Shown piece after piece: positions 36,199-51,497 of a stretch of DNA of 64,000 bases; the stretch's first letter is position 1; every line of letters begins with the position of its first letter. The position numbers and the translations under genes are program-made. Source of the stretch: Candidatus Micrarchaeia archaeon (GTDB taxonomy: Archaea > Micrarchaeota > Micrarchaeia > CAILAH01); NCBI GenBank assembly GCA_038874595.1, contig JAVZCB010000001.1, positions 64,001 to 128,000 of the forward strand. The letters are read 5' to 3'. Below the pieces are notes generated by a model, which had not been told where the DNA came from, made no database searches, and saw only the letters and a list, made by a program, of their open reading frames with translations.

Positions 36199-37724
36199 GT
36201 GTGATGCTCCAGAGGTTTGCCGATGAGGGCTTCCTCGTGGAATCGGGTGTTGACCGCCTGCTTGCAGAATGCGGTCTCCAGGCAGATGCAATAATTGAGT
36301 TTGCAAAACAGCGTGATGAGTTTATAATCTCGCATTCCTTGATTGAGGATTATCTCAGGCAGAAGCATGAGCAGGAGAAAGCCTCTTTGCAAGAGCCTAT
36401 CGAACCTGAAACGCAGGCGTGCATTGAGAAAGTTGTTGAGGTGAAGGTTGAGCGCCCAGTTTTCCGTGCACTGGCATCAGAGTATCCATCACGTATTGAG
36501 CACATTGCCAGGTATGATGTGAGCGGCAAGTCCACTTGTGAGGGCACAGTTGATGATTTTGTATCGCTTTTCAAGGATAGGCACAAGAGGATATCTGCAC
36601 TCTTGCACGCACAGCCGTCACAGTATCCAGTGACCACATTAAACGGTGCAAAGAAGGGTGAGAAGTGCAGGTTTATTGGGATGGTGCGCTCAAAAACGGT
36701 AACAAAGAATGGGCACCTGATAATTGAGATTGAGGATGAGCAGGGTGTGATGAAAGGGTTCATAAACAGCTCAAAGAAGGAGCTGATGGCCCTCTCAGGG
36801 CAGGTGCTTTTGGATGAGGTGCTCGCATTTGACGGTAATTACAAAGACCCTTTCTTCTTTATTGATGCAATTACGTGGCCGGATATCCCGGTAAGCAAAC
36901 CAAAACGCCTGATTGAGGAGGACCTTTCAATAGCTTTCTTATCCGATTTGCACGTTGGCAGCAAACTTTTTCTGGAAGACCAGTTTAAGCATATGCTTAA
37001 CTGGCTGAAGGGCAACTGCGGGGATGCGCGTGAGCGCGAGATTGCTTCCTCTGTAAAATACCTGTTTATAGCAGGTGATATGGTTGACGGTATAGGGATA
37101 TACCCCAACCAGGAGAAGGAGCTTGCAATACAGGACATTTATGAGCAGTACAATACGTTGTTCAATTATCTTGAGCAGGTCCCGGAATACATTGACATCA
37201 TAATGATACCAGGTAATCACGATGCGGTCAGGAGAGGTGACCCGCAACCGCGTATCCCGGATGAGTTCATTAGGAACAAGCGCTCAAACTATCATTTTGG
37301 CTCATCACCATCCTGGTTTAAGGTTGAAGGGCTAAACTGCCTGCTTTATCACGGCAATTCGCTTGATTCAATGATTGCAAACATAGCGGGGCTTTCATAC
37401 AACGAGCCAGAGAAGGCGCAGGTTGAATACTTGAAAAGGAGGCACTTGTCACCGATATATGGCTCTAACCACATAATCCCAGAGAAGGAGGATTATATGG
37501 TGATTGAGGACGTCCCGGATATTGTACATATGGGGCACGTGCATAAGAACGGTTATGTTGAGTACCGCAACGTGCTGTGTATTAACGCAGGCACGTGGCA
37601 GTCGCGTACCGAGTACCAGCGTATGCAGGGGCACATACCTACACCTGCAATTCTTCCGATATATAATATGAAACGCGGCTCGATTCGCCAGGTTGATTTC
37701 AATGGTGGTACCGTTGAGTGCTGA
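36195..37724 (+). CDS. polB: DNA polymerase D small subunit DP1
   Basis: SDLHVGS, GDMVDGIGIYP.Q, PGNHD, YHG, RRHLSP, GHVH. Confidence 0.95.
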   Translation: MSVMLQRFADEGFLVESGVDRLLAECGLQADAIIEFAKQRDEFIISHSLIEDYLRQKHEQEKASLQEPIEPETQACIEKVVEVKVERPVFRALASEYPSRIEHIARYDVSGKSTCEGTVDDFVSLFKDRHKRISALLHAQPSQYPVTTLNGAKKGEKCRFIGMVRSKTVTKNGHLIIEIEDEQGVMKGFINSSKKELMALSGQVLLDEVLAFDGNYKDPFFFIDAITWPDIPVSKPKRLIEEDLSIAFLSDLHVGSKLFLEDQFKHMLNWLKGNCGDAREREIASSVKYLFIAGDMVDGIGIYPNQEKELAIQDIYEQYNTLFNYLEQVPEYIDIIMIPGNHDAVRRGDPQPRIPDEFIRNKRSNYHFGSSPSWFKVEGLNCLLYHGNSLDSMIANIAGLSYNEPEKAQVEYLKRRHLSPIYGSNHIIPEKEDYMVIEDVPDIVHMGHVHKNGYVEYRNVLCINAGTWQSRTEYQRMQGHIPTPAILPIYNMKRGSIRQVDFNGGTVEC

Positions 37725-40700
37725 TAACTCAAGAACACACACAGATAACAACGCACAGCAGCAGGCAACAGCCATTATTCATAATGATATCAAGGCATAT
37801 TTCAAGCGTATCGAGGAGGGGGCACAGGAAGCGCTCAGGATTGCAAACGAGGCGCGCAGGAAAGGCTACGATTTCGTTGACCATGTTGAGATAACGCTTG
37901 CACCTGATGTTGCAGGCCGTGTTGAGGGTATTGTTGGGCCGAAAGGCATTTCTGAGGTTATCAGGGAGCTGGTCGCACAGAAGAAGACGCGCGATGAGGT
38001 TGCGTTTGAGATTGCGCGCCGTATCACCACCAATGAATTTGCGACCGGCCTCAACACTGAGCAGCGGCTCGGGCAGGCAGTACGTACCGGCCTTGCGGTG
38101 CTTACCGAAGGTGTGCTGGTAGCACCTACTGAAGGTATATCCGCAGTTAAGATTGAGAAGAACCCTGACGGCTCAAACTACTTAGCGATTTATTTCTCCG
38201 GCCCGATTAGGTCGGCAGGAGGTACCGCAGCAGCATTGGCTGTCCTGCTGGGTGATTACGTCCGCCGGTTTGCTGATATTGGCGATTTTATACCTACAGA
38301 AACAGAACTGCTCCGCTATGTTGAGGAAGTGAATTTATATGATGCAAGGTGTGCCAGGCTGCAGTACAAGCCGCCAGATGAGGATATAAAATGGGTATTC
38401 AAGAATTGCAAGGTATGCATTGCAGGTGAGCCTACACACGATATTGAGGTTAGCGTGTACAGGAACCTTGAGCGCATGAAGACCAATAGGGTACGCAGCG
38501 GTGTTGCGCTCGTGAGCTGTGAAGGGATTGCACAGAAAGCGCGTAAAGTCCTCAAATACGCAAAGAAGTACGGGCTTGACTGGGGCTGGCTTGAGAAGCT
38601 TGTCAAGGAGAAAAAGAAAGAGGATAAGGTTGAAATCAAGCCGAACGATACGTTCTTGGAAGGGCTTGTTGCAGGCAGGCCGGTCTTTTCGTACCCATCA
38701 GCAAAAGGCGGGTTTAGGCTAAGGTATGGGCGCACGCGGTTTACAGGTATTGCTGCAAAAGCGATACACCCTGCTACTATGGTGCTGCTTGATTATTTCC
38801 CTGCGTTGGGAACACAGCTTAAGATAGAACGCCCAGGTAAAGGCACGGTAATAACACCGTGCGATACAATAATGGGCCCAATCGTTAGGCTCAAGAATGG
38901 TGATGTTGTATATGTTTCATCCTCAGATGAGGCAAAACTGCTTTATGAAGATGTTGAAAAAATCCTATTTCTAGGCGACATGCTTATATCCTATAATGAT
39001 TTTTCAAAAGCGAACCACGTGCTTTTACCATCACCGTTCGTTGAGGAGATATGGGACATGCTCGCTGCAGAAAAGTCAGCAAGCCAGGGTGAGCAAATCG
39101 TACGGCCCAGGACGGCGCGTGAGGCGTTTGATTTATCACGGAAGACATCGCTCCCATTATACCCGGCATACCTATACTTTTGGAGTGATATCTCAAAAGA
39201 AGAGCTGTTGACACTTGTTAACGCAATCACATCTGCTGGCAAAGTTGAGCTTGATTGGTTTGATGTAAAATCGCTTACAATCAATGATATGAGCGCAAAG
39301 CCCGTGCTTGAATCGCTCGGTGTGCCTCACAAGCTTAGGGATGGCGCAATAATAGTTGAAGGTGATCATGCATATTCACTTCTTGCCACACTCGGTATGC
39401 TTGGAAGCAGTTCAAACGCTAAAATATCCAGGGAAGTTATCGATTCTGCTGTTTCAAACGCCAATACTGATGACGTGTGCTCCATACTCACAATAGCATC
39501 AGGTGTTGAGATACGCAGGAAATCCACATATTATATAGGGTCCAGGATGGGCCGGCCTGAGAAGGCAGATGACCGCTCAATGGCAGGTTCTGTCCACGGC
39601 CTGTTCCCGATAGGAACGCTCGGTGGCAAACTCCGTAGTGTCTCAACAGCGATAAAGAGCAATTATGCATCCTCACTTAATGTTGACCTTGTAGAGCTGC
39701 ACTGCCACAAATGCAACGCAGTATCTTTTTATCCTGTATGCATTTCATGCGGTGCGCGCATCGAGTATGATATCTCAGCAGTTAAGCATAGTGTCAGGCC
39801 GATTGATTTCAAGTCGCTTTACGAGCGTGCAGTAAAACGATGCGATTGTTCACCTGAAGGGTTCCGTCTCATCGTGGGGCTTACAAGCAGCACAAAGTTC
39901 CCTGAAGCGCTCGAGAAAGGGCTTCTCCGTGCAAAACACGGCGTTTACGTGTTCAAGGATGGCACGTGCAGGTTTGATTCAACTGACCTGCCGGCAACGC
40001 ATTTCAGGCCGCGTGAGATAGGTACCTCAATTGAAAAGCTGCGCGAGCTTGGCTATCTATATGATGCTTCCGGCGCCCCGCTCGAATCCGAGGACCAGGT
40101 TGTTGAGCTGTTACCGCAGGATATAATATTATCAGAGAACTCTGCTGACTTTTTTTTGCGGCTCTCTCATTTCATTGATGACCTGCTCATACACCTATAT
40201 GGCATGAAGCCTTTTTACAATGCAGACTCAAAGGAGGACCTTATAGGCCATTTGTTTATCACACTCTCACCGCATACATCTGCAGGTGTGGTAAGCCGCC
40301 TCATCGGTTTTATTAAGGGCCGTGTCGGCATATCACATCCATATGTGATTTGTGCGCGCAGGAGAAATGCGGATGGTGATGAGGATACCGCGATACTTTT
40401 GATGGATGCATTCCTTAATTTCTCAAAGCTATACCTTCCAGAGACACGCGGCTCAACCATGGATGCGCCTATCGTTCTTACAACGGTTGTTGACCCTGCC
40501 GAGGTTGATGATGAAGTGCATGCAATGGAGGTTGTCAAATCTTATGGGCTCGAATTTTACAAGGCCGCTGAAGAGTACAAGCCGCCAAGCGCAATCAAGC
40601 CAGAGCTTGTTGAGGACAGGCTCGGGAAAGAAAGCGCGTTTTACTCTCTGGGGTATACGCACGAAGTCACGGATATAAATGATTCTCCAGTCCGTTCCGA

Positions 40701-41115
40701 GTACGTGCTATTAAAATCAATGAAGGATAAGCTTGATAAGCAGTTCTCACTATACAGCAGGCTGCGCGCAGTTGATGCAGTCGATGCGGCCACGCGGTTG
40801 CTATCATCGCATTTCATCCCAGACATCTATGGGAACCTACGCTCATTTTCCAGGCAGACGTTCCGCTGTGGCGGCTGCAACAACATTTATAGGAGAGTAC
40901 CATTATGCGGTAAATGCGAGAAGTGCGGCGGCAAGCTTCTCCTAACAATCAACAAGGGTGGGATTGAGAAATACATCAAGCTCGCCAAGTATCTCATAAC
41001 CAAGTACGATCTTCCTGAGTATACGATGCAGCGGTTGGAGCGCGTAGAGAAGGAAATCTCATCGATATTTGAGGATGAAAAAAAGAAGCAGTCATCTTTG
41101 GCGCAGTTCTTGTGA
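37693..41115 (+). CDS. polC: DNA polymerase D large subunit DP2
   Basis: EG.LVAP.EGI, GPIRSAGGT, GGFRLRYGR, SRMGRPEK, DGDED catalytic motif, GNLRSF.RQ.FRC; exact start uncertain. Confidence 0.97.
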   Translation: MISMVVPLSADNSRTHTDNNAQQQATAIIHNDIKAYFKRIEEGAQEALRIANEARRKGYDFVDHVEITLAPDVAGRVEGIVGPKGISEVIRELVAQKKTRDEVAFEIARRITTNEFATGLNTEQRLGQAVRTGLAVLTEGVLVAPTEGISAVKIEKNPDGSNYLAIYFSGPIRSAGGTAAALAVLLGDYVRRFADIGDFIPTETELLRYVEEVNLYDARCARLQYKPPDEDIKWVFKNCKVCIAGEPTHDIEVSVYRNLERMKTNRVRSGVALVSCEGIAQKARKVLKYAKKYGLDWGWLEKLVKEKKKEDKVEIKPNDTFLEGLVAGRPVFSYPSAKGGFRLRYGRTRFTGIAAKAIHPATMVLLDYFPALGTQLKIERPGKGTVITPCDTIMGPIVRLKNGDVVYVSSSDEAKLLYEDVEKILFLGDMLISYNDFSKANHVLLPSPFVEEIWDMLAAEKSASQGEQIVRPRTAREAFDLSRKTSLPLYPAYLYFWSDISKEELLTLVNAITSAGKVELDWFDVKSLTINDMSAKPVLESLGVPHKLRDGAIIVEGDHAYSLLATLGMLGSSSNAKISREVIDSAVSNANTDDVCSILTIASGVEIRRKSTYYIGSRMGRPEKADDRSMAGSVHGLFPIGTLGGKLRSVSTAIKSNYASSLNVDLVELHCHKCNAVSFYPVCISCGARIEYDISAVKHSVRPIDFKSLYERAVKRCDCSPEGFRLIVGLTSSTKFPEALEKGLLRAKHGVYVFKDGTCRFDSTDLPATHFRPREIGTSIEKLRELGYLYDASGAPLESEDQVVELLPQDIILSENSADFFLRLSHFIDDLLIHLYGMKPFYNADSKEDLIGHLFITLSPHTSAGVVSRLIGFIKGRVGISHPYVICARRRNADGDEDTAILLMDAFLNFSKLYLPETRGSTMDAPIVLTTVVDPAEVDDEVHAMEVVKSYGLEFYKAAEEYKPPSAIKPELVEDRLGKESAFYSLGYTHEVTDINDSPVRSEYVLLKSMKDKLDKQFSLYSRLRAVDAVDAATRLLSSHFIPDIYGNLRSFSRQTFRCGGCNNIYRRVPLCGKCEKCGGKLLLTINKGGIEKYIKLAKYLITKYDLPEYTMQRLERVEKEISSIFEDEKKKQSSLAQFL

Positions 41116-41351
41116 ATGAAGATGAGACTATATTTATGTGGTTTTTATATCTGCTCTCAGAATAGTATTTTATCTATGTATATAGTACGCCTTTTCTAAT
41201 AAATAAGGTTGAGAAGGAGATACTTGTTTTCTTAATAACTGCTTTTTATAGTATTTTATTGCAACATTATTGTAACAGTTTATGAAAGTAGAAATTAATT
41301 AAGGCTGTAGATATTTGTATTTAATATATTTTCCAGTGATTTATTCTTGGT

Positions 41352-42338
41352 GTGATAATGGATTTTTTTGAAGGAGTTCTTGTTATTATAAGTGCATTAA
41401 TATTTGCTGCGTTTTCGGCAGCTGTTGGTTATTATTATGGGGTGCAAACAGAACGCAAACGTAAAGAATATGAGTCAAATTCAGCATTAATTCATATCAA
41501 TCAGCAGTTAGCTGAGATTAAGATTAAGTTTGAAGAGATTGAGAAAGCCCGTAAAGATCGTGAGAAATTAGTGTCTGATATGAATGCAGAACGCATTGAA
41601 TTTATGGATATCCTTAGAAAGGACGCAAGTAAAAAGGAAGAAGATAGACTTAAACAAGTTCAAGAAATTATAGATAATATGGGTAAAATAGAAAGAATTC
41701 TTGTTGGTACTTATTCAAGAGGTAAGTCGGGTGAAGAACTTTTGAAAGAATCACTAAAAGATTTCATAAAAATACGCCTGGTAGAATGTAATGTATCCGT
41801 TGGCAATAATCTTACTGTCGAATATGGCTGGAAACTTAATGATGGTAAGTATATCCCTATAGATTCCAAATATCCAGATATATTTGGTCAAATTAGGAAA
41901 TTAGATGAAACCAACGATGCGAACGCTCGTAAAAAACTTAAGGAAATGATTAAGCGAACTTTAGAAAGAAATATAGATGATATCACAAAATATCAGAATC
42001 AAACAAAAACTACAGATTACTGTATTCTTTCAGTTCCAGATTCAATAATTGAGCTTTTACCAGAAATATGTCATTATGGTTTATCAAAAAGAGTTTTTGT
42101 CGTAGGATACTCAAATACAGCTATAATTGCGTTCCTTATCGCACAACAGTATAATAAAAGTTTGGAAGAACGTGATGTAAAGGAATTAAGCCAGATTATC
42201 GAGAGTCTCTCTATGATATTGGATAAGATTTCTGAGAACGTTAGTACTATCGAACGTGGGATTAAAATGGTCAAAAATGCCAGTGAAGATATTCAAGCTG
42301 AGGTGGTAAAGGGCAAACAAAAGATTAAGTTGTATTAA
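41352..42338 (+). CDS. rmuC: RmuC-family protein (TM + coiled coil + PD-(D/E)xK nuclease fold)
   Basis: N-terminal TM, RGKSGEELL, IPIDSKYP, I.KY...TTDYCILSVP. Confidence 0.8.
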   Translation: MIMDFFEGVLVIISALIFAAFSAAVGYYYGVQTERKRKEYESNSALIHINQQLAEIKIKFEEIEKARKDREKLVSDMNAERIEFMDILRKDASKKEEDRLKQVQEIIDNMGKIERILVGTYSRGKSGEELLKESLKDFIKIRLVECNVSVGNNLTVEYGWKLNDGKYIPIDSKYPDIFGQIRKLDETNDANARKKLKEMIKRTLERNIDDITKYQNQTKTTDYCILSVPDSIIELLPEICHYGLSKRVFVVGYSNTAIIAFLIAQQYNKSLEERDVKELSQIIESLSMILDKISENVSTIERGIKMVKNASEDIQAEVVKGKQKIKLY

Positions 42339-42444
42339 TGTTTTGGTTATTGAAAACTCTATACTTAAACTGGCTATTTCGGAAACCGAAAACTTATTAT
42401 TTAGTTAATCTCTAAGTAAATTCATCTCTAAATGGGAGGATGAT

Positions 42445-42957
42445 TTGTTGGGTCCTGGTGTGAGGTTAAGTATACTTCAAAAGAAGTCCGGAGAATGGTT
42501 TGATATGGAATCACATAGTGAAATAAGAGGTAATATTGTTGCAGTAAACGTCAGCGATTCCTGTTCAGGTGATTGGACTTTAAACTTAAAAATTTCTGAA
42601 GATTTGAGAAAATGTGAAGTTGCGGCTGTAACTTCTTCAGGAACAACAATTCTTCATGACCAAGTCAAGCATAAAACGATGGTTTTGAAGGCGAAAGATG
42701 AGAATGAATTTTATAGCCTATTGGGATTGGCATACATACAAGAAGATCGCCTTAGGATGAAAAGAGTGAGTTCTAGGACTAAAGTTCCGGTAGAAATATC
42801 TAATCGATTTGAGCTTGTGACAATGAGTAGCCTGGGCAAATTCGGACCAATGCGCGACAAGATTGCAGCAATAGTAAATAAAGAAGATTATGAGAGAATC
42901 GCATTGTTATTTTATTTACAGAAAATTGCCCCAATTTTGGACAAATTTAAAATTTAG
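42445..42957 (+). CDS. Hypothetical protein
   Basis: 170-aa ORF, TTG start after SD gggagg. Confidence 0.55.
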   Translation: MLGPGVRLSILQKKSGEWFDMESHSEIRGNIVAVNVSDSCSGDWTLNLKISEDLRKCEVAAVTSSGTTILHDQVKHKTMVLKAKDENEFYSLLGLAYIQEDRLRMKRVSSRTKVPVEISNRFELVTMSSLGKFGPMRDKIAAIVNKEDYERIALLFYLQKIAPILDKFKI

Positions 42958-42970
42958 AGGAGGTGAAATA

Positions 42971-43045
42971 ATGGCACGAAGAGTATCTTTCACAAGAAGC
43001 AATGGGAGCAGAGTTTGCTTCTATTCCACACGTAAGAGGCCTTGA
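42971..43045 (+). CDS. Putative 24-aa basic microprotein
   Basis: MARRVSFTRSNGSRVCFYSTRKRP* after a strong SD ggaggtga; not in ORF track. Confidence 0.45.
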   Translation: MARRVSFTRSNGSRVCFYSTRKRP

Positions 43046-43090
43046 ACTGAGAAGAACGTCTTAATAATGGAACCTAGCAATTGTCACATA

Positions 43091-43840
43091 TTATTTCTTT
43101 TGGTTTTGGAAAAACATTTTATTAAGAAAAGGTGATAGTAAGACTGGATCAAAAACTCTTTTCATTATGACTCTTGAATCAAGTTTTGTTTTCTTAGATG
43201 CAATCTCCATTATTGAAAAAATTTTTAAAAGGGTATCCAACCCCTCTTTTTCACAAAGGCTTTTAGCTTTGTTTAAAATTACAATATGTTGTTCTTTTGG
43301 TAAGTCAAACCTTAGTAGGTCAAACATTGAAATCTTAAGTGTTTCAAAATCTTTATTATTGAATTTTTCTCTAAATTTGTAAACTTCGTCATCTTTTAAT
43401 TTATTTACATAAGTATAAATTTTGTTTGAAAGTTGATTTGATTCGATTTTTCTTATCTTCGATTTCTTTGATAAAATTATTTTAGGTATTTGATTGTTAA
43501 GTATAGCGTATTTTAATTGATTTTTTTCATTTGCATTAAGTTTTTTGGAGTTTGGTGCAAGATAAGATAGTACAGGCAGTAATTTTGAAATAGGTAGTCT
43601 AATTTTTGAAATATCCTCTTTTGTGAATGCACTTCTTAACCAATAACCTCTAAGAAGTAGCGCTCTACTCACATAAATTTTTTTATTTTGAATATTCCAA
43701 TACGTTTTTTGTGAAACCATTTTATGCTCAACTAAGAAATCCCCCAGTATCCATAATTTTTGTATTTTTTTATGAGGATCAATCTCTCTTTTGTATTCAC
43801 TAGTCATTTTTTGAAGGGTAATTAAGATATAATCATTCAT
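43091..43840 (-). CDS. Basic hypothetical protein, third gene of the GHKL operon
   Basis: Start MNDYIL overlaps the GHKL ATPase stop (ATGAATGA); Lys-rich, helical. Confidence 0.65.
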   Translation of the reverse strand: MNDYILITLQKMTSEYKREIDPHKKIQKLWILGDFLVEHKMVSQKTYWNIQNKKIYVSRALLLRGYWLRSAFTKEDISKIRLPISKLLPVLSYLAPNSKKLNANEKNQLKYAILNNQIPKIILSKKSKIRKIESNQLSNKIYTYVNKLKDDEVYKFREKFNNKDFETLKISMFDLLRFDLPKEQHIVILNKAKSLCEKEGLDTLLKIFSIMEIASKKTKLDSRVIMKRVFDPVLLSPFLNKMFFQNQKK

Positions 43841-45626
43841 CTTCTTCAACCTCTGCAACTTTCTTTTTAATTTCTTCACGTTTGTCCCAGAGCATTTTCT
43901 CAACTTTTGCAATTGTTTCAACTATCTTAACGTTTTTGTCCTTGCTATCTACTTCAATACCTTTCCTCTTGTAATATAGGTCAAGAAACCACGGTGTGGT
44001 AACGAATGCCAAATATGAGATAAATCTTTTTGTTATTTTCTTTTTCTTAGGAGTATTTAATCTCTCTAAATAAAAAGGATGTATTGAATTAATAACAATT
44101 ATTTTATCTCCCCACATATCTGAAGGAGGCATTTTTTCACCAAGTGGGTGAAAATCAAATTGTAAGCCTCGTTGCTTTATTTGTTTGTAATTTATTTTGT
44201 TACCATCATCAGATGAAGGTACTTCCCCCTTACTTTCTCCGATATTTGATCCTATCTGACCAGAGGTAGCATTTTCATTTATTTCACGTGATAAACCAGT
44301 TCTTATTTTACCTGTGCCTTTGTAGTCTTTGTTACCGAGTATAAAACCAGCACCTATGTCAGCGATTCCACTAAGCAAACCTTTGTCTGATTTTATTTCA
44401 CGTGTCCTTGCAAAGATATCGGTATCCATCTCCTTCGAAACATCACTAAAAATATCTGATAGAAGATCCGACAATGATTTTTCGTGTTCTTTTATTTTAT
44501 TTTTGTCAATCTCATCAAATTTTTGTTTTACAACAGCAGTGATTTTTGCAAGTTCTGAATAGATGTAATCACGTTCATCGGAGGGAGTAATATCTGACCT
44601 TGTAATGTCTATTTCAATTTTTTTCGTAATATCAAACCGTCCAATAATTTCTGGTCTTTCCCATACTGTATTGTCAATGTTATTCTCGTTACAATAATCC
44701 TTAAAACTCTCAAGTCTTGGTATCTCCCTTATGGTTGTACCTAATCTGCTGATACGTGGTAAGTATTCTTTAATCACGGGATTTTGATTAAGATATGTCG
44801 GTTCAATAATTTTGAAATAATACGTGGCAATACTTTTGTTGTTTTTGTCTTTAATTTCACCAGAAATGACCTCCCCAGGTATAGTGTTATAATCCAAAGG
44901 AGATATTTTGATTATTTGTGGTTTGCATACACTGCGCTTTTTGGTCCATCTATAAATATATATCTCAACAAGATTGCTACGTATAAACTCTTCGAAATGA
45001 ATTGGGATTGTGGTAATTAATTTTTCAGAGATGTAATCAAAAGAACTCCTTCTCTGTTCCTTTTTTGTAATTCCCTCAACAAATACATCTGTCCCATGAG
45101 TTCTTGTTATCCTATAATATTGGAATGCTCGTAAATCGAAAATGGAACCGAATACAGGCATCTGAACTTTCTCTTTTTCTTCATTTAGGTTCCCATAAAT
45201 TTCATTTCTTTCAAAGGATAGTAAATTTGTCTTTGGAGATTCATCTATACTTGTTGAATAAATTTTGATTGTGTCAAACCACCCTCTGAAAGATTGAATA
45301 CCATATCCAAATTGACCAGGTGTCCAAGCGTAAGCTTTTTTCTTTGAATTGAAAGTTTTTGTAGGTAATTCGCTAAGTTCTTTTCTGGTCATCCCAGCAC
45401 AATTATCTTGTATGATAAATCTCTTCCTTGTGGTATCAATATGAACAAGAATTTTTCTTGGCAATATTTCTTTACCGTATTTTTTTTCCAGCTCAATCGC
45501 ACTATCAATGGAGTTCTGTATATATTCATAAAGAACTGCTTCAGGTTGGTGGTACAGTGCAGCGATTCTTTGAATGATCTCCATTATTTGTTCATCTTTT
45601 GGATTATCTAGAATTCTTAACTTCAT
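43833..45626 (-). CDS. GHKL (MORC/Hsp90-like) ATPase
   Basis: EYIQNSID, DNCAGM, GQFGYG, HGT (GHKL motifs I-IV), S5-like region, C-terminal IVINSIHPFY; alternative start 45656. Confidence 0.85.
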   Translation of the reverse strand: MKLRILDNPKDEQIMEIIQRIAALYHQPEAVLYEYIQNSIDSAIELEKKYGKEILPRKILVHIDTTRKRFIIQDNCAGMTRKELSELPTKTFNSKKKAYAWTPGQFGYGIQSFRGWFDTIKIYSTSIDESPKTNLLSFERNEIYGNLNEEKEKVQMPVFGSIFDLRAFQYYRITRTHGTDVFVEGITKKEQRRSSFDYISEKLITTIPIHFEEFIRSNLVEIYIYRWTKKRSVCKPQIIKISPLDYNTIPGEVISGEIKDKNNKSIATYYFKIIEPTYLNQNPVIKEYLPRISRLGTTIREIPRLESFKDYCNENNIDNTVWERPEIIGRFDITKKIEIDITRSDITPSDERDYIYSELAKITAVVKQKFDEIDKNKIKEHEKSLSDLLSDIFSDVSKEMDTDIFARTREIKSDKGLLSGIADIGAGFILGNKDYKGTGKIRTGLSREINENATSGQIGSNIGESKGEVPSSDDGNKINYKQIKQRGLQFDFHPLGEKMPPSDMWGDKIIVINSIHPFYLERLNTPKKKKITKRFISYLAFVTTPWFLDLYYKRKGIEVDSKDKNVKIVETIAKVEKMLWDKREEIKKKVAEVEEDE

Positions 45627-45636
45627 ATTTTCGGCC

Positions 45637-45870
45637 TCATAAATTAAATTGTTCAAGTGTGGATTTTTTGAAAAGTGATTTTACACGTTTTGTTTCCTTT
45701 TCAATTGCAGTAAATATTACATTCACTTCTTCATCAGAATACTCATAAGTAGAGATATTTGAACAATTTTCTAATAATTTGAGAGTATATAAAGTTTTCC
45801 TAGTTCTAGCCTCAGTGATACGTCTGAATTTCTCATTTTTTGTCTCTCCCGCAACAGATATTTTTACCAT
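45637..45870 (-). CDS. Small helical protein of a family I recall next to R-M/defence loci
   Basis: ETKNEKFRRITEART..TL..L.LL.NCSN...YEYS.EEV..IF..IE.E pattern; first gene of the GHKL operon. Confidence 0.65.
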   Translation of the reverse strand: MVKISVAGETKNEKFRRITEARTRKTLYTLKLLENCSNISTYEYSDEEVNVIFTAIEKETKRVKSLFKKSTLEQFNL

Positions 45871-46194
45871 ATAATCATCTAATACTATTAGTATTGATAA
45901 AAGCAAATATAAAAACTTTTTCATTTTATGTTGTATATATTGCGGCTCTTAAATATCCAAGCGTTCCGTTGTATGAGGCATCTAAATTTTCATACCCGCT
46001 CTTAAGTTATGATTGGAGGTGGTCAAGGTGATGCAAAAATACATATCTATCTTAAATTTTAGGCTCAGATGATTATCTTTAATCTCTGGACATTCTATTG
46101 TAAGTAATAATTTCAATGATAAGATATCTCCGACTATTGAAAAAGAGTGATCTTTACTCAGCTTCATTAAGTTATTTTTATTCTTTATTTATAC

Positions 46195-46278
46195 CTACTA
46201 CTGGAAGAACCACTGCTTTACTGCTTCTGTTGTGATGCAATAGAAAAACAAAATTTCGAATACGATGGCGATGCCAAG
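46195..46278 (-). repeat. Diverged copy of the P-type ATPase 3' end
   Basis: 46201..46278 aligns ungapped to 48757..48834 (63/78 identical by hand count); reads LGIAIVFEILFFYCITTEAVKQWFFQ** versus LDIAIVFGIVFLYCITTEIVKQWFFQ. Confidence 0.85.
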
Positions 46279-46318
46279 ACATATTTTGGTGTATCTTTTC
46301 CCTTACGGCAAATGTAAG

Positions 46319-46522
46319 AAATGCGAGAAGTGCGGCGGCAAGCTTCTCTTAACAATCAACAAGGGCGGGATTGAGAAATACATCAAGCTGGCCAAATACC
46401 TGATTACAAAATATGGACTTCCAGAATATACGATGCAAAGGTTAGAGAGAGTTGAGAAGGAAATCTCATCGATATTTGAGGATGAAAAAAAGAAGCAGTC
46501 CTCACTGGCACAGTTCCTCTAA
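46319..46522 (+). repeat. Duplicated 3' end of DP2 (last 67 codons + stop)
   Basis: Aligns ungapped to 40912..41115; 177/204 nt identical by hand count, one amino-acid change (D->G). Confidence 0.95.
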
Positions 46523-46567
46523 TACTATTTTAAGCTTAGAGTACCTAATTATAGATGAGCTGATTTT

Positions 46568-47134
46568 ATGGGAAAAAGGAGTGGAAAGAAGGGTAATGAA
46601 TACTCTGATGCCGTATTCGTGGGTGTCGGAGGCTGCGGGATCAATACGGTCTCAAGGCTGTCAGAGCTGGGAATAACCGGCTCAAAGTTCGTACTTGTGA
46701 ATAAGAAGGGCGATAACCATCCCTCATCAGTGAAGGGCGCGTCCGAATTGATCGTTGACATGCCGTTATCAACGCGCATGCCGCTCCCAGACAAGGAACT
46801 TGGCGCTTTCAAGAGCCAGCTCTCCGAGGAGCTCAAAGGCGCCGGGAAGGCATACATATTCGCAGGGCTTGGCGGCTCAACAGGTACCTCCCTTGCGCCG
46901 ATTGCCGCGCAAACAGCCAGGGAAATGGGCGTGGAGCCGGTCATAATAGTCACTCTTCCGTTTGAGGTTGAGAGGAATAGGTGTGAGATTGCCAGGAATA
47001 CGCTCCCCGCGCTCAGGGATATCCCCGGCCAGCTAATAGTCCGCGACAACAACGATTTGGTGAAGGAGTGTCCTAACCTATCGATGAAAGAGGCATTCAA
47101 GAAATTCGATGAGAAGCTCATAGGACAGCTCTGA
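46568..47134 (+). CDS. FtsZ/tubulin-like GTPase, N-terminal domain only
   Basis: VGVGGCGIN, AGLGGSTGT, VTLPFEVE, DNNDL, AF...DE; ends after 188 aa. Confidence 0.8.
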   Translation: MGKRSGKKGNEYSDAVFVGVGGCGINTVSRLSELGITGSKFVLVNKKGDNHPSSVKGASELIVDMPLSTRMPLPDKELGAFKSQLSEELKGAGKAYIFAGLGGSTGTSLAPIAAQTAREMGVEPVIIVTLPFEVERNRCEIARNTLPALRDIPGQLIVRDNNDLVKECPNLSMKEAFKKFDEKLIGQL

Positions 47135-47281
47135 TTAATTTCCTTTTATTTTAGGGTTTCTATGATATTTGTTTATGCAGTTATGTGTGGCACAAAAGAC
47201 AGACAATTAAGTAATCTTAAAATCCAAGGTAAGGCGTTTTGTAATATTTTATATATTTATATCTTCACTAATGATAGGATC

Positions 47282-47893
47282 ATGGATAAAAAAACTGTCT
47301 TTGAAATTGTTAAAAAATTACAATTTGACACTAAAAAAATTATTTACAAAAAAGGTAATACCTCTGTATATATTATAAGACCATCTAAATTATCTAAGCG
47401 ATTTAATGAGTATGATGTGCATAAGAATTTCCAGATATTCCTTAGGATTGGTGAACGTGAATTTAGGCCAAATCATCTTAGGGTGATGATTGATCTTAAC
47501 CTAAGGATTCGCAGCCGCCCTGAACTGAAGAAAAAGCTACTCCTAGCGTTTGACAATATATTCTATGGAGCAGATCCAGAAAAGGAACTGAAAGCTCTGT
47601 CCCGACAGAAGTTTGAGCATTTTCTAAATGATTTGATAGTTATTGGTACACTTGCCCAATTATTTGTGATTGAGCAGGAATATTGTTATCACAGAAAAAG
47701 TAATTTTGATCCACCAACTCTCTTTTTTCAGGGCTGGGTTAGGGAATTTCTAGATAATCCTAAGGAAATAGATAATTTGTGCATGAGCGTTTGTAAAGGC
47801 CTACCTCCATTACAAAAATATGTATCTCGTGAAAATAAGAAAAGCAAAAACTATTCAAAGAAACTTAAGCCCCTTTGGTATCTTAAATCTTAA
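47282..47893 (+). CDS. Putative type II restriction endonuclease
   Basis: Basic AT-rich ORF convergent with, and overlapping by 4 nt, a DNA methyltransferase; no catalytic motif recognised. Confidence 0.5.
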   Translation: MDKKTVFEIVKKLQFDTKKIIYKKGNTSVYIIRPSKLSKRFNEYDVHKNFQIFLRIGEREFRPNHLRVMIDLNLRIRSRPELKKKLLLAFDNIFYGADPEKELKALSRQKFEHFLNDLIVIGTLAQLFVIEQEYCYHRKSNFDPPTLFFQGWVREFLDNPKEIDNLCMSVCKGLPPLQKYVSRENKKSKNYSKKLKPLWYLKS

Positions 47894-48663
47894 TTCTCGG
47901 ACCATGCTTCAACAAGTTGCTTCTGAACTGCACCTAGGCGTTTTTTGGCAATTTCAATGTATTTTTCTTCTTTGTCTATACCTATTGAATTCCTATTAAG
48001 CATCTTTGCCGCTACCGATGTTGTTCCTGAGCCAACAAATGGATCTAGGACAGTATCACCTTCATTTGAAGTTGCAAGTATGATCCTCTTCAATAACTCT
48101 AGGGGTTTTTGGGTTGGATGAATACCATATTTTTTTTCACTCTTTGGTGTTAAAGGTATTTCCCACACATTACGCATTTGCTTGCCTTTATTTATAGATT
48201 TCATCAGTTCATAATTAAATACCCATTTCTTGTTGCTATGATTCTTTGTTGCCCAGATAAGATGTTCTGTGGATTCAGTAAACATGCGACACGTTATGTT
48301 TGGCTGGGCATTTGGCTTGAACCATACGATTGAATTGTTAATCTTTGCCTCATATATATGCTGAAGGATAAAACCAATCTGATAAATGTTATGGAACGAG
48401 CCACATACCCAAAAGCTCCCACCATGCTTCAAAACTCTCATACATTCCTTTATCCACTTCTGATTGAACTTAAAGAATTCGTCTTTCTCAAATATGTCCC
48501 ATTCTTCTGTAAGCGTTATGTGTTTGCTATATGCCCATCCCAGACCCTTCTTTTTCGCTAATCCATAAGGCGGGTCAGCAAATATCAGGTCAACTGATTC
48601 ATCAGGCATTTTCTTTAGCTCCTCAATTGCATCACCAATAATCAGCTGGTGAGTGGTCTTCAT
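47890..48663 (-). CDS. Site-specific DNA methyltransferase, beta class (N6-A/N4-C)
   Basis: ADPPY, HPTQKP, VLDPFVGSGTT in beta motif order. Confidence 0.93.
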   Translation of the reverse strand: MKTTHQLIIGDAIEELKKMPDESVDLIFADPPYGLAKKKGLGWAYSKHITLTEEWDIFEKDEFFKFNQKWIKECMRVLKHGGSFWVCGSFHNIYQIGFILQHIYEAKINNSIVWFKPNAQPNITCRMFTESTEHLIWATKNHSNKKWVFNYELMKSINKGKQMRNVWEIPLTPKSEKKYGIHPTQKPLELLKRIILATSNEGDTVLDPFVGSGTTSVAAKMLNRNSIGIDKEEKYIEIAKKRLGAVQKQLVEAWSEN

Positions 48664-48726
48664 AAATTCATTTCACGTAGATTGTTTAAAAACATTATTA
48701 CAGAGATATTCCAGTTATTTTAAATA

Positions 48727-51324
48727 CTAATAGCTATTCTCAAACTCCTTATAATGCTGGAAGAACCACTGCTTTACTATTTCTGTTGTGATGCAGTACA
48801 GGAACACGATCCCGAACACGATTGCAATATCAAGCGCGGATGGAACTGCAAAATTGAAATATTGGCCCACCGCGGGAAGTGAGACCACCGCAACCGCAGC
48901 GGCTGTGATAAACAGCGAAGATGTGATTAGCAGCCTGCTTGGTATGCTTGCAAAGAACGGCCCGCGCGTTCTCACTATGAATGTTATGAATATCTCGGAT
49001 AGCAGCGATTCAAGGAACCAGAGCGTTCGCAGCAGTGCCGCCCCTACGCCTAACACGTAATAGAATACTAATATGGTGAGCAGGTCAAACAGTGAGCTTA
49101 ACACACCGAAGAATACCATGAAATGCGAGATCATCTTGACATTCCATTTCTTAGGTGTCTTGATAGATTTCTCATCCACGTTATCTGTTGATATTGCGAG
49201 CATTGGGAAATCGCTGAGGAAGTTGTTCAATAATATCTGTACCGGAAGAAGCGGTATAAATGGAAGAAACAGCGGTGATATAATTACAGTGCCCATATTA
49301 CCGTAATTTGCGCTTATTGTGTTGAGTATATATTTTGTAATATTAGCGAACGTTTTCCTGCCCTCACGCACACCATCTGCGATTACCCTGAGGCTCTTAT
49401 GTGTCAGGACAACATCCGCTGCCTCTTTTGCAACGTCCTGTGCGGTATTTACTGAAATCCCCACATCAGCAAGCCGGAGAGCTGGTGCATCATTAATACC
49501 ATCACCCATAAACCCGACGATGTGGCCGTTTGCACGGACAGCTTCAAGGATTCTTACTTTTTGTGCAGGTGTAACACGCGCAAACACATTGTATTTCTCA
49601 ACAACCTCGTGTAATTTTTTATCATCTATATTATCAATCTCCTTGCCGGTGATTACGCGTTTTCCCTTAATCTCGAGCTTTACATCCTTACATAATCTCT
49701 TTGTAACATCCGGGTCATCACCGGTTAAAAGCATCAGTGATATGTCCAATTCCTTAAACTGCTTGATTGATTCAATAGCAGTTCTCTTAGGCTCGCTCTT
49801 AAAGAGCATAAACCCTTCCAACGTTAGCTCGCGCTCATCTGCAACAGAGTAATCATTCTTTTGTGGGACGGCTCGTGAAGCCACTGCGAGTACAGAGTAT
49901 CCTTCCTTTGCAAACCCCCGCACAATCTCATTTATCTTTTTCCTAACACTATCAATCTCAGTTTTCTTGCCGTTGATGTTGGCATAAGCACATACAGAGA
50001 GCACAGATTCTGCCTCACCTTTTGTTATAAGCACAATCTCCTGTCGTGATTTTCGCTTGCTTGTTTTCTGTGATATTTTAAACACTTCGCTCATCCGTTT
50101 CCTTTCATAATCGAACGCAATATCATCAATGTTTGCATACCCATCCGGCTTTTGGATATGATGAAGGTTCGCATATCTGATTATTGCAGTATCATATACA
50201 TTTCCAGAAATGTGTTTGCCGTGCGTATGCGCATGACTGCACAGCAACCCATATTTCAGGACACCCCAATCATCATTACCTAACGGTGCAACAGTTTTCT
50301 CAAGCATAAGTTCCGGCTCGGTAAGCGTACCGGTCTTATCCATTAGCAGCACGTCCATGAGCCCAACATCTTCGATTGTGGCGAGCTTTTTAACCACGAC
50401 TTTCTTCTCAGCCATCTTAAGTGCACCTGCAGACAACGTGATGGTAGTGATTGCAGGAAGCATCTCAGGTGCAATGCCAACAGCCACTGCAAGTGCAAAC
50501 AATAAAGATTCAAGGATACCCCTGCCAAGATATGAGTTTACAGCAAACACAAATATTGTCATTATTACAATGACCTGGAGTGTGAACGTACTGAACTTCC
50601 TGATATTAACCTGGAAATCAGATTCAGGTATCTTTGCTGAGTATAGTGTAGCGGTCCTGCCAAAATGCGTAGATTGACCCGTGGCAACCACTATACCTTT
50701 TGCAGTACCGTAAGTTACAGTGGTCCCCATAAGTGCATAATTCTTAAGCTCATATGCTGCCGGCCGTGCAAGCTTAATAGGCGCCGTACTTTTCTCAACC
50801 TCGCGCGACTCACCAGTTATTGCAGATTCATTCGTACGGAAATCTTCACATCTGACCAAACGCATATCCGCAGGCACAACGTTCCCGATCTCAAGCAGGA
50901 CCACATCACCGGGTACAAGGTCCTCCGCATTGATTTCTTCCTGCCGTCCATCACGTATTACAACAGCCTTATTTGAAAGATACCTCTTGAGCTGGCGTAG
51001 CGAGTTTTCTGAACGGTACTCTTGATAGAACCCGAGCAGTGCACTTAACAGCAGTATCGCTATAATCGTGAGCCCCTCTGTTGTATCCCCAATGTATAAA
51101 GCTATGACTGAGGCAAAAATTAGTATGAATATGAAAGCGTTATTAAACTGCGAAAGCAGTATCTCAAGCCATGAACGCCTGTCCCTCTCTGGGATTGAGT
51201 TCCTTCCGTAAACCATTCTCCTGCGTGCAACTTCATGTGCGCTTAGCCCTTTCTCAGGATCAACCTTAAGTGCAGCTGCAACTTGATAGCTTTCCAATCG
51301 CCAATATTCACTATTGTTATTCAC
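48727..51324 (-). CDS. mgtA: Mg2+-transporting P-type ATPase (P3B, MgtA-like)
   Basis: TGES, PEMLP, DKTGTLT, TGD, MGDGINDAPAL, SANYGNM, NNFLSD; GTG start inferred. Confidence 0.88.
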   Translation of the reverse strand: MNNNSEYWRLESYQVAAALKVDPEKGLSAHEVARRRMVYGRNSIPERDRRSWLEILLSQFNNAFIFILIFASVIALYIGDTTEGLTIIAILLLSALLGFYQEYRSENSLRQLKRYLSNKAVVIRDGRQEEINAEDLVPGDVVLLEIGNVVPADMRLVRCEDFRTNESAITGESREVEKSTAPIKLARPAAYELKNYALMGTTVTYGTAKGIVVATGQSTHFGRTATLYSAKIPESDFQVNIRKFSTFTLQVIVIMTIFVFAVNSYLGRGILESLLFALAVAVGIAPEMLPAITTITLSAGALKMAEKKVVVKKLATIEDVGLMDVLLMDKTGTLTEPELMLEKTVAPLGNDDWGVLKYGLLCSHAHTHGKHISGNVYDTAIIRYANLHHIQKPDGYANIDDIAFDYERKRMSEVFKISQKTSKRKSRQEIVLITKGEAESVLSVCAYANINGKKTEIDSVRKKINEIVRGFAKEGYSVLAVASRAVPQKNDYSVADERELTLEGFMLFKSEPKRTAIESIKQFKELDISLMLLTGDDPDVTKRLCKDVKLEIKGKRVITGKEIDNIDDKKLHEVVEKYNVFARVTPAQKVRILEAVRANGHIVGFMGDGINDAPALRLADVGISVNTAQDVAKEAADVVLTHKSLRVIADGVREGRKTFANITKYILNTISANYGNMGTVIISPLFLPFIPLLPVQILLNNFLSDFPMLAISTDNVDEKSIKTPKKWNVKMISHFMVFFGVLSSLFDLLTILVFYYVLGVGAALLRTLWFLESLLSEIFITFIVRTRGPFFASIPSRLLITSSLFITAAAVAVVSLPAVGQYFNFAVPSALDIAIVFGIVFLYCITTEIVKQWFFQHYKEFENSY

Positions 51325-51497
51325 AGGACCACATAAATACTTCTGCCAAATACTTAAAAAGGCATTATGTTGTACATGCACGCGCAGGATGAGGGTGCCT
51401 GGTAGCACGGTGGTAGCAGAATTTTAAATCCGGCAAGTGCGCAACTGGAAACCTTCATACAGAGCGCTTTTATAACTCAGGTTGTAGAATATCTACC

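Follow-up and report, generated by a model that had tools for sequence, protein, structure and literature searches.

What kind of system is an archaeal operon that places a GHKL-type ATPase between two small basic proteins of unnamed families, and does it defend its host? The operon lies on the minus strand of a 64,000-nucleotide stretch of archaeal DNA (here referred to as the window), and the original prediction, made from the letters alone, was of a MORC-type ATPase operon without a methyltransferase that could form an undescribed defence system. The module proves to be real, recurrent and unnamed, although of a kind already known, the GHL-ATPase conflict systems, and it is probably an anti-virus candidate. 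Three features lift it above the ordinary, namely a partner protein of no known family, a small gene held in common with other operons, and members of the ATPase family in protists.

The operon and its insertion site

The three genes, here named S, A and B, encode a basic protein of 77 aa (45870-45637; pI 9.3), a GHL ATPase of 597 aa (45626-43833) and an all-helical protein of 249 aa (43840-43091; pI 9.9), all read from the minus strand. S and A are separated by 10 nt, while the stop of A and the start of B share 8 nt (ATGAATGA), and GC content is 0.31, compared with a genome value of 0.44; the host is a small archaeon whose genome measures 918 kb and is 93.5% complete. The three-gene layout, the AT-rich island and the basic third protein of about 250 aa overlapping the ATPase stop are all as originally described. 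Searches with Pfam, PADLOC and NCBIfam profiles placed neither a methyltransferase nor a PD-(D/E)xK domain within the operon, and no nuclease motif was found in S, A or B.

The triplet is part of a 7.6 kb AT-rich insertion (41116-48726) between the gene for the PolD large subunit (DP2; 37693-41115, plus strand) and a P-type ATPase gene (48727-51408, minus strand). This insertion is missing from a relative of the same genus (G401), where the two flanking genes lie about 310 bp apart. The slot can be regarded as a variable site, since in a genome of the same family (G403, L030:4731-9475) it holds unrelated cargo, by eye a LemA-like protein, an endonuclease V-like protein and a large secreted protein. 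Besides the triplet, the window insertion carries, on the plus strand, genes for an RmuC-family protein (PF02646; 41352-42338), a 170-aa protein with no assigned family (42445-42957) and a 188-aa short FtsZ/tubulin GTPase domain that lacks the C-terminal part (46568-47134). An internal junction (46196-46516) parts the triplet from a second cargo containing a methylase, and is made up of an 83-bp copy of the 3' end of the P-type ATPase gene (46196-46278, 80%) and a 198-bp copy of the 3' end of DP2 (46319-46516, 88%), in which the changes are mostly synonymous. The two cargos sit as if they were stacked alleles of one variable slot; no integrase is present within the insertion, and the junction could reflect uptake of related-strain DNA helped by homology, or else a chimeric assembly.

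Architecture of the ATPase

A carries motifs I-IV of the Bergerat-fold GHKL/GHL ATPase superfamily (E34-N38-D41, D74-G78, G104-G107-G109 and G178-T179, corresponding to ExxxN, a DxGxG-like motif, GxxGxG and GT), matches PF13589 over the cut-off (E 4e-7) and has a middle domain of the S5 fold in which a basic residue is conserved. All four motifs had been read correctly in the first place, as had the C-terminal INxxHP-Y motif (N513, H516, P517). In structure comparison, residues 1-376 of the model can be aligned with GRP94, MORC and MutL up to and including their middle domains, and the top Foldseek matches all belong to the Hsp90 family; the layout is Hsp90-like. Prokaryotic relatives of A are about 590 aa in size, and R343 is invariant across the 68 sequences that make up the family sample. 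A is predicted to hydrolyse ATP. The only conserved residues in its C-terminal domain are H516, R522, Y538 and E576, neither this domain nor B showed an effector or catalytic motif, and A gives no Pfam nuclease or TIR match.

The partner protein and the conserved core

A basic helical protein of the B type, 250-295 aa in length, directly follows A in all 14 distinct prokaryotic loci having downstream DNA, these being the window, L001 (identical to L002, L004 and L015), L005, L006 (Pacearchaeota), L012, L013, L017, L019, L021, L023, L025, L026 (IMG/VR), L061 (its A-B genes all broken) and L073, the last of which was found through a search for B homologues and again shows the order S-A-B. On two contigs beyond these, the gene after A fits B in size and overlap only. 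The module thus recurs in other genomes, as had been anticipated for the triplet, but its conserved core is two genes, A and B, and S is found in only some of the loci.

B is built from two helical halves, which cover roughly residues 3-114 and 125-244, and has three invariant residues, W30, G33 and R59. All 35 homologues are basic (pI 8.7-10.1) and all-helical, none of them contains a conserved acidic catalytic set, and the protein fits no family in Pfam, PADLOC or PHROGs and no structural family. Its charge is our basis for supposing that B may bind DNA. When B was modelled with two copies of A residues 340-597, the predicted complex had a score of 0.57 and the best control one of 0.01, with contact agreement of 32% and partner pLDDT of 81; with scores of 0.60 or lower, the passing mark was reached by 7 of 80 solved complexes and by both of the mismatches (of 110) that passed. 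This result weakly suggests that B docks on the C-terminal half of A.

A small gene common to several GHKL operons

S lies upstream of A in 9 of the 15 loci with upstream DNA, with a 442-aa gene intervening in L023. Its place is taken in L017 by a DpnII-type restriction-modification (R-M) pair, and in L005 and L012 by a Zn-ribbon protein of about 320 aa (316-325 aa; L005:485-1435 and L012:685-1662), the ATPases of these two loci belonging to different subclades. Within the phylum S is the more widespread gene, occurring in 12 of 401 genomes versus 3 of 401 for A, and in six of the nine S-bearing genomes that lack A it directly precedes other GHKL-type ATPases of 521-904 aa, which are of about four types as called by motif I and weak profile scores. 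These other operons headed by the S family of 72-77 aa (L047/L056, L048/L057, L051/L058, L052/L059, L054/L060 and L055) have no clear PADLOC match. S is best read as an optional lead gene common to this and other, unrelated GHKL operons, putatively a regulator or cofactor, and as such it may offer a ready marker for further systems of this type.

Methylases and other neighbours

An N6/N4 DNA methyltransferase gene (47890-48663, minus strand; PF01555, E 4e-60) lies 2.26 kb from the operon, on the same strand and in the same insertion. It is the sole PF01555 match over the cut-off in the host genome, the rest of which yielded no D12, type I N6 or C5 methylase. The absence of a methyltransferase claimed originally therefore holds inside the operon but not around it, given that the genome's only clear DNA methylase is 2.3 kb off and that a methylase lies no more than 3.5 kb from the module in 12 of the 15 loci, these loci not being wholly independent of one another. 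Two further genomes, G341 and G357, each have a single D12 methylase, at 0.36 and 0.44 kb from A. The adjacent methylases are variously of the D12, N6/N4 and type I N6 families and vary in position as well, and because family and orientation change between loci the methylase is to be seen as a neighbour and not as a fixed subunit. The constant cognate methylase and nuclease expected of an R-M system do not appear across the 15 loci.

Facing the window methylase is a gene on the plus strand (47282-47893) for an unnamed 203-aa protein with no Pfam or PADLOC match. Its family occurs in 9 of the 401 phylum genomes and nearly always converges on an adenine-type methylase (N6/N4 or D12 family), such a methylase lying beside it in every other genome examined (L063, L065-L070, L019 and L061). 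Members adjoin the module in L019 and L061, and in L019 homologues of both the window methylase (51%) and the 203-aa protein (59%) are located just upstream of S-A-B. The 203-aa protein is a putative restriction endonuclease of an undescribed type, or a restriction partner. L061 (G357:C1:842-4770) is a decaying copy: stops or frameshifts disrupt its ATPase, B and adjacent D12 methylase genes, and S and a 201-aa gene look intact.

Other neighbours across the loci include an integrase, an AAA_5 ATPase, DndB, EVE-NucS, AIPR, HNH and PD-(D/E)xK proteins and a PIN toxin-antitoxin pair, so that the module keeps company of the kind found in defence islands. On the IMG/VR contig L026, S-A-B is accompanied by a Zot-like ATPase and small membrane proteins, an arrangement that is inovirus-like by eye. 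A different GHKL ATPase family was seen in L007-L011 beside genes with a B12-binding/radical-SAM-like N-terminus, with DndB-like genes also nearby in L010 and L011 (by eye); these loci gave no clear PADLOC system match.

Members in eukaryotes

Eight members of the A family are labelled eukaryotic, either themselves or via their 90% cluster: Creolimax, Chromosphaera, a 'Clim' gene model that we take to be Corallochytrium, Mucochytrium, an MMETSP0961 transcript, Amorphochlora, Phyllostaurus and one EukProt transcript. Their identity to P0017 and P0024, which are prokaryotic members, is 25-35%, and the catalytic residues are retained. In a careful tree they make up one side of a branch with 75/81 support, and in a quick tree they fall inside a 32-row group (SH-aLRT 99); as both trees have a midpoint root only, a single origin of the eukaryotic members is no more than possible. 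The 17 kb span of the Amorphochlora gene, on a contig of 894 kb, indicates that this gene is nuclear and split by introns. The MMETSP0961-type copy is surrounded by eukaryotic genes, and a search of 13 kb at this one protist locus checked found no B. Stand-alone copies of A (L028:3394-5376 and L072:6001-23132; P0026, P0041, P0050, P0073, P0085 and P0103) come from unicellular holozoans, labyrinthulids and rhizarians. These protists include close unicellular relatives of animals, and their copies would represent a further entry of conflict-type GHL ATPases into eukaryotes.

Possible functions of the module

Our leading proposal, to which we give slightly less than an even chance, is that the module is an undescribed and mobile clamp of R-M islands, built on an unnamed GHL-ATPase family and directed against mobile genetic elements (MGEs). 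A would dimerise via its C-terminal domain and its N-terminal GHKL domains would close on ATP, like those of Hsp90, MutL and MORC, as we infer from the fold and the invariant catalytic residues, while B would dock on the C-terminal half of A and provide the contact with DNA. The resulting A2-B clamp, having no nuclease of its own, would most likely grip, compact or block incoming DNA, or alternatively hand it over to island nucleases, restriction enzymes among them, while whichever methylase is present in the island would mark self; S would act as an optional small regulator or cofactor common to other GHKL defence operons. If this is true, an Hsp90-like clamp defends the cell without itself cutting DNA, and the compactness of the module (2.8 kb, without a nuclease) makes the idea easy to test. 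A bolder version, which we hold to be doubtful, is that a new Hsp90-like GHL clamp family forms with B a nuclease-free anti-MGE system, that S of 72-77 aa serves several GHKL defence ATPases as a general switch, and that the ATPase was taken up by protists as a stand-alone nuclear gene, as happened with MORC and Tiamat/sacsin. Counting against the clamp are the lack of an effector or catalytic motif in the C-terminal domain of A or in B, the changing family and orientation of the methylases together with the 3 of 15 loci that have none within 3.5 kb, the typical MORC/paraMORC helicases, none of which was seen beside the module, and the protist members, which appear to function without B. Location in a defence island, moreover, does not by itself prove a role in defence.

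Much of the same evidence could be read as that of a chaperone-held effector, in which A acts as a chaperone or sensor of the Hsp90-like type, dedicated to B as its client, an explanation that we think rather unlikely. It would account for the Hsp90-like layout and Foldseek matches, the middle-domain loop arginine and the INxxHP C-terminal domain, for the strict 1:1 linkage of A and B with their stop/start overlap, and for the genome (G357) in which A is broken together with B and the methylase; the predicted contact between A and B, weak as it is, also fits, and Hsp90-like conflict proteins with fused effectors figure in the literature, as a review of it shows (bioRxiv 10.64898/2026.09.30.754977). 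An invader protein or stress would then free B to bind nucleic acid and arrest the cell, by abortive infection or addiction. That A is instead a known paraMORC family member (of these, only paraMORC1 is left as a candidate), an accessory of neighbouring R-M systems that is inactive alone, seems improbable: the proximity of methylases is strong and the GHKL and S5 domains, conserved C-terminal extension and R-M neighbourhood are alike, but the loci read contain no co-occurring MORC gene or SF2 helicase, A lacks the features that define paraMORC2-5, and a constant partner such as B does not appear in the portion of the paraMORC account consulted (PMC2292703). There is likewise only a slim chance that the module has no defensive role and serves the maintenance of mobile elements, as a selfish device for DNA compaction, partition or gene silencing that gathers in R-M hot spots. 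Its presence on IMG/VR contigs, the mostly viral hypothetical proteins that are the nearest Atlas feature neighbours of B, and the stand-alone nuclear copies in protists, which imply a role without B, speak for this; however, a search with one bacterial-type member as query matched none of 72,556 plasmids and 50,697 phages, and the constant theme of the neighbourhood is R-M and defence genes, with no constant replication or partition neighbour.

Comparison with known systems

Among 68 A, 35 B and 10 S sequences no PADLOC model fits, weak touches being confined to the ATPase domains of TmtA and MzaB, and no named system in NCBIfam or Pfam matches the module, which agrees with its originally predicted novelty. 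The proposed likeness of the third protein to DUF1016/YhcG fared less well, with no confirmation from Pfam or profile-profile comparison: none of 12 B members matches DUF1016_N (PF17761), and hhalign gives a probability of 0.3-0.5% with a thin profile (5 sequences). B resembles DUF1016_N/YhcG and the DUF3102-type ParB-like HTH in having W-x-x-G on a long helix followed by helix-turn-SR-helix, and Atlas values against these types are 0.91-0.92 (0.92 for DUF1016_N), with 149 of 256 features shared versus the 170 typical of true family members; unlike YhcG it has no YhcG_C nuclease, and kinship is at most a lead. PDC-M33, a PADLOC candidate system, is similar in that its M33C models (247 and 312 positions) are of the size of B, but the PDC-M33 models match none of the 68 A, 35 B and 10 S sequences, and the M33C models have no matches in the host genome or G341. 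For a remote kinship of B with M33C, which may exist, the sole comparator was one weak M33C match (E 1e-7), which the B profile does not match.

The MORC label given to A is unsupported, because the GhXhhpXXRhl motif of the S5 domain is absent from all 68 members, the family having PxFxxKGRRI and the window protein LPRISRLGTTI at this position. Iyer, Abhiman and Aravind (2008, PMC2292703) describe an SF2 helicase in about 70% of MORC neighbourhoods; none is annotated adjoining the module within the limited flanks of loci with Pfam tables. Like the MORC and paraMORC1-5 proteins as they appear there, A combines a GHKL and S5 module with a C-terminal extension and occurs sporadically in bacteria and archaea beside methylases or restriction enzymes, with a eukaryotic offshoot, whereas the module differs in its constant partner B and in having no fused restriction-fold, TIR or HxH domain. 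ParaMORC1 has, according to the same source, a C-terminal extension that is conserved and distinct, and occurs together with a MORC gene or HNH nuclease; against these traits, A has a conserved C-terminal domain, an HNH gene nearby in one locus and no MORC neighbour seen. The ExxxH of paraMORC2 is due in the C-terminal part of S5, while the conserved ExxxH of A (206-210) is at the GHKL/S5 boundary and residues 230-345 contain no conserved His except H324, at 68% and without the Glu. The C-terminal E-D-ExK restriction fold, TIR or HxH of paraMORC3/4/5 is absent from A.

The N-terminal and middle domains of A find their best structural matches in Hsp90, HtpG, TRAP1 and GRP94, with which A also shares an invariant middle-domain arginine and INxxHP. 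We take these to be the equivalents of Hsp90 R380 and LEINPxHP. A is nevertheless only 13-16% identical to Hsp90/HtpG, is patchy and island-borne, and falls far below the cut-offs of the NCBIfam HtpG/HSP90 equivalogs (24.2 vs 455 bits and 20.2 vs 371 bits). Hsp90-like conflict proteins with fused effectors are known (Nicastro 2023, cited via bioRxiv 10.64898/2026.09.30.754977), from which A differs in that neither an HD nor a calcineurin-like effector is fused to it. According to a recent preprint, GHL proteins rarely have antiphage activity, and Tiamat (TmtA) is among the few for which it has been shown (bioRxiv 10.64898/2026.09.30.754977). Tiamat models are of 1300-1800 aa and include DUF3684 and a PD-(D/E)xK nuclease, neither of which is found in the 597 aa of A, and TmtA models give weak matches in 3 of 68 A members (best E 3.5e-6); TmtA is nonetheless, like A, a GHL ATPase with methylase neighbours and eukaryotic homologues.
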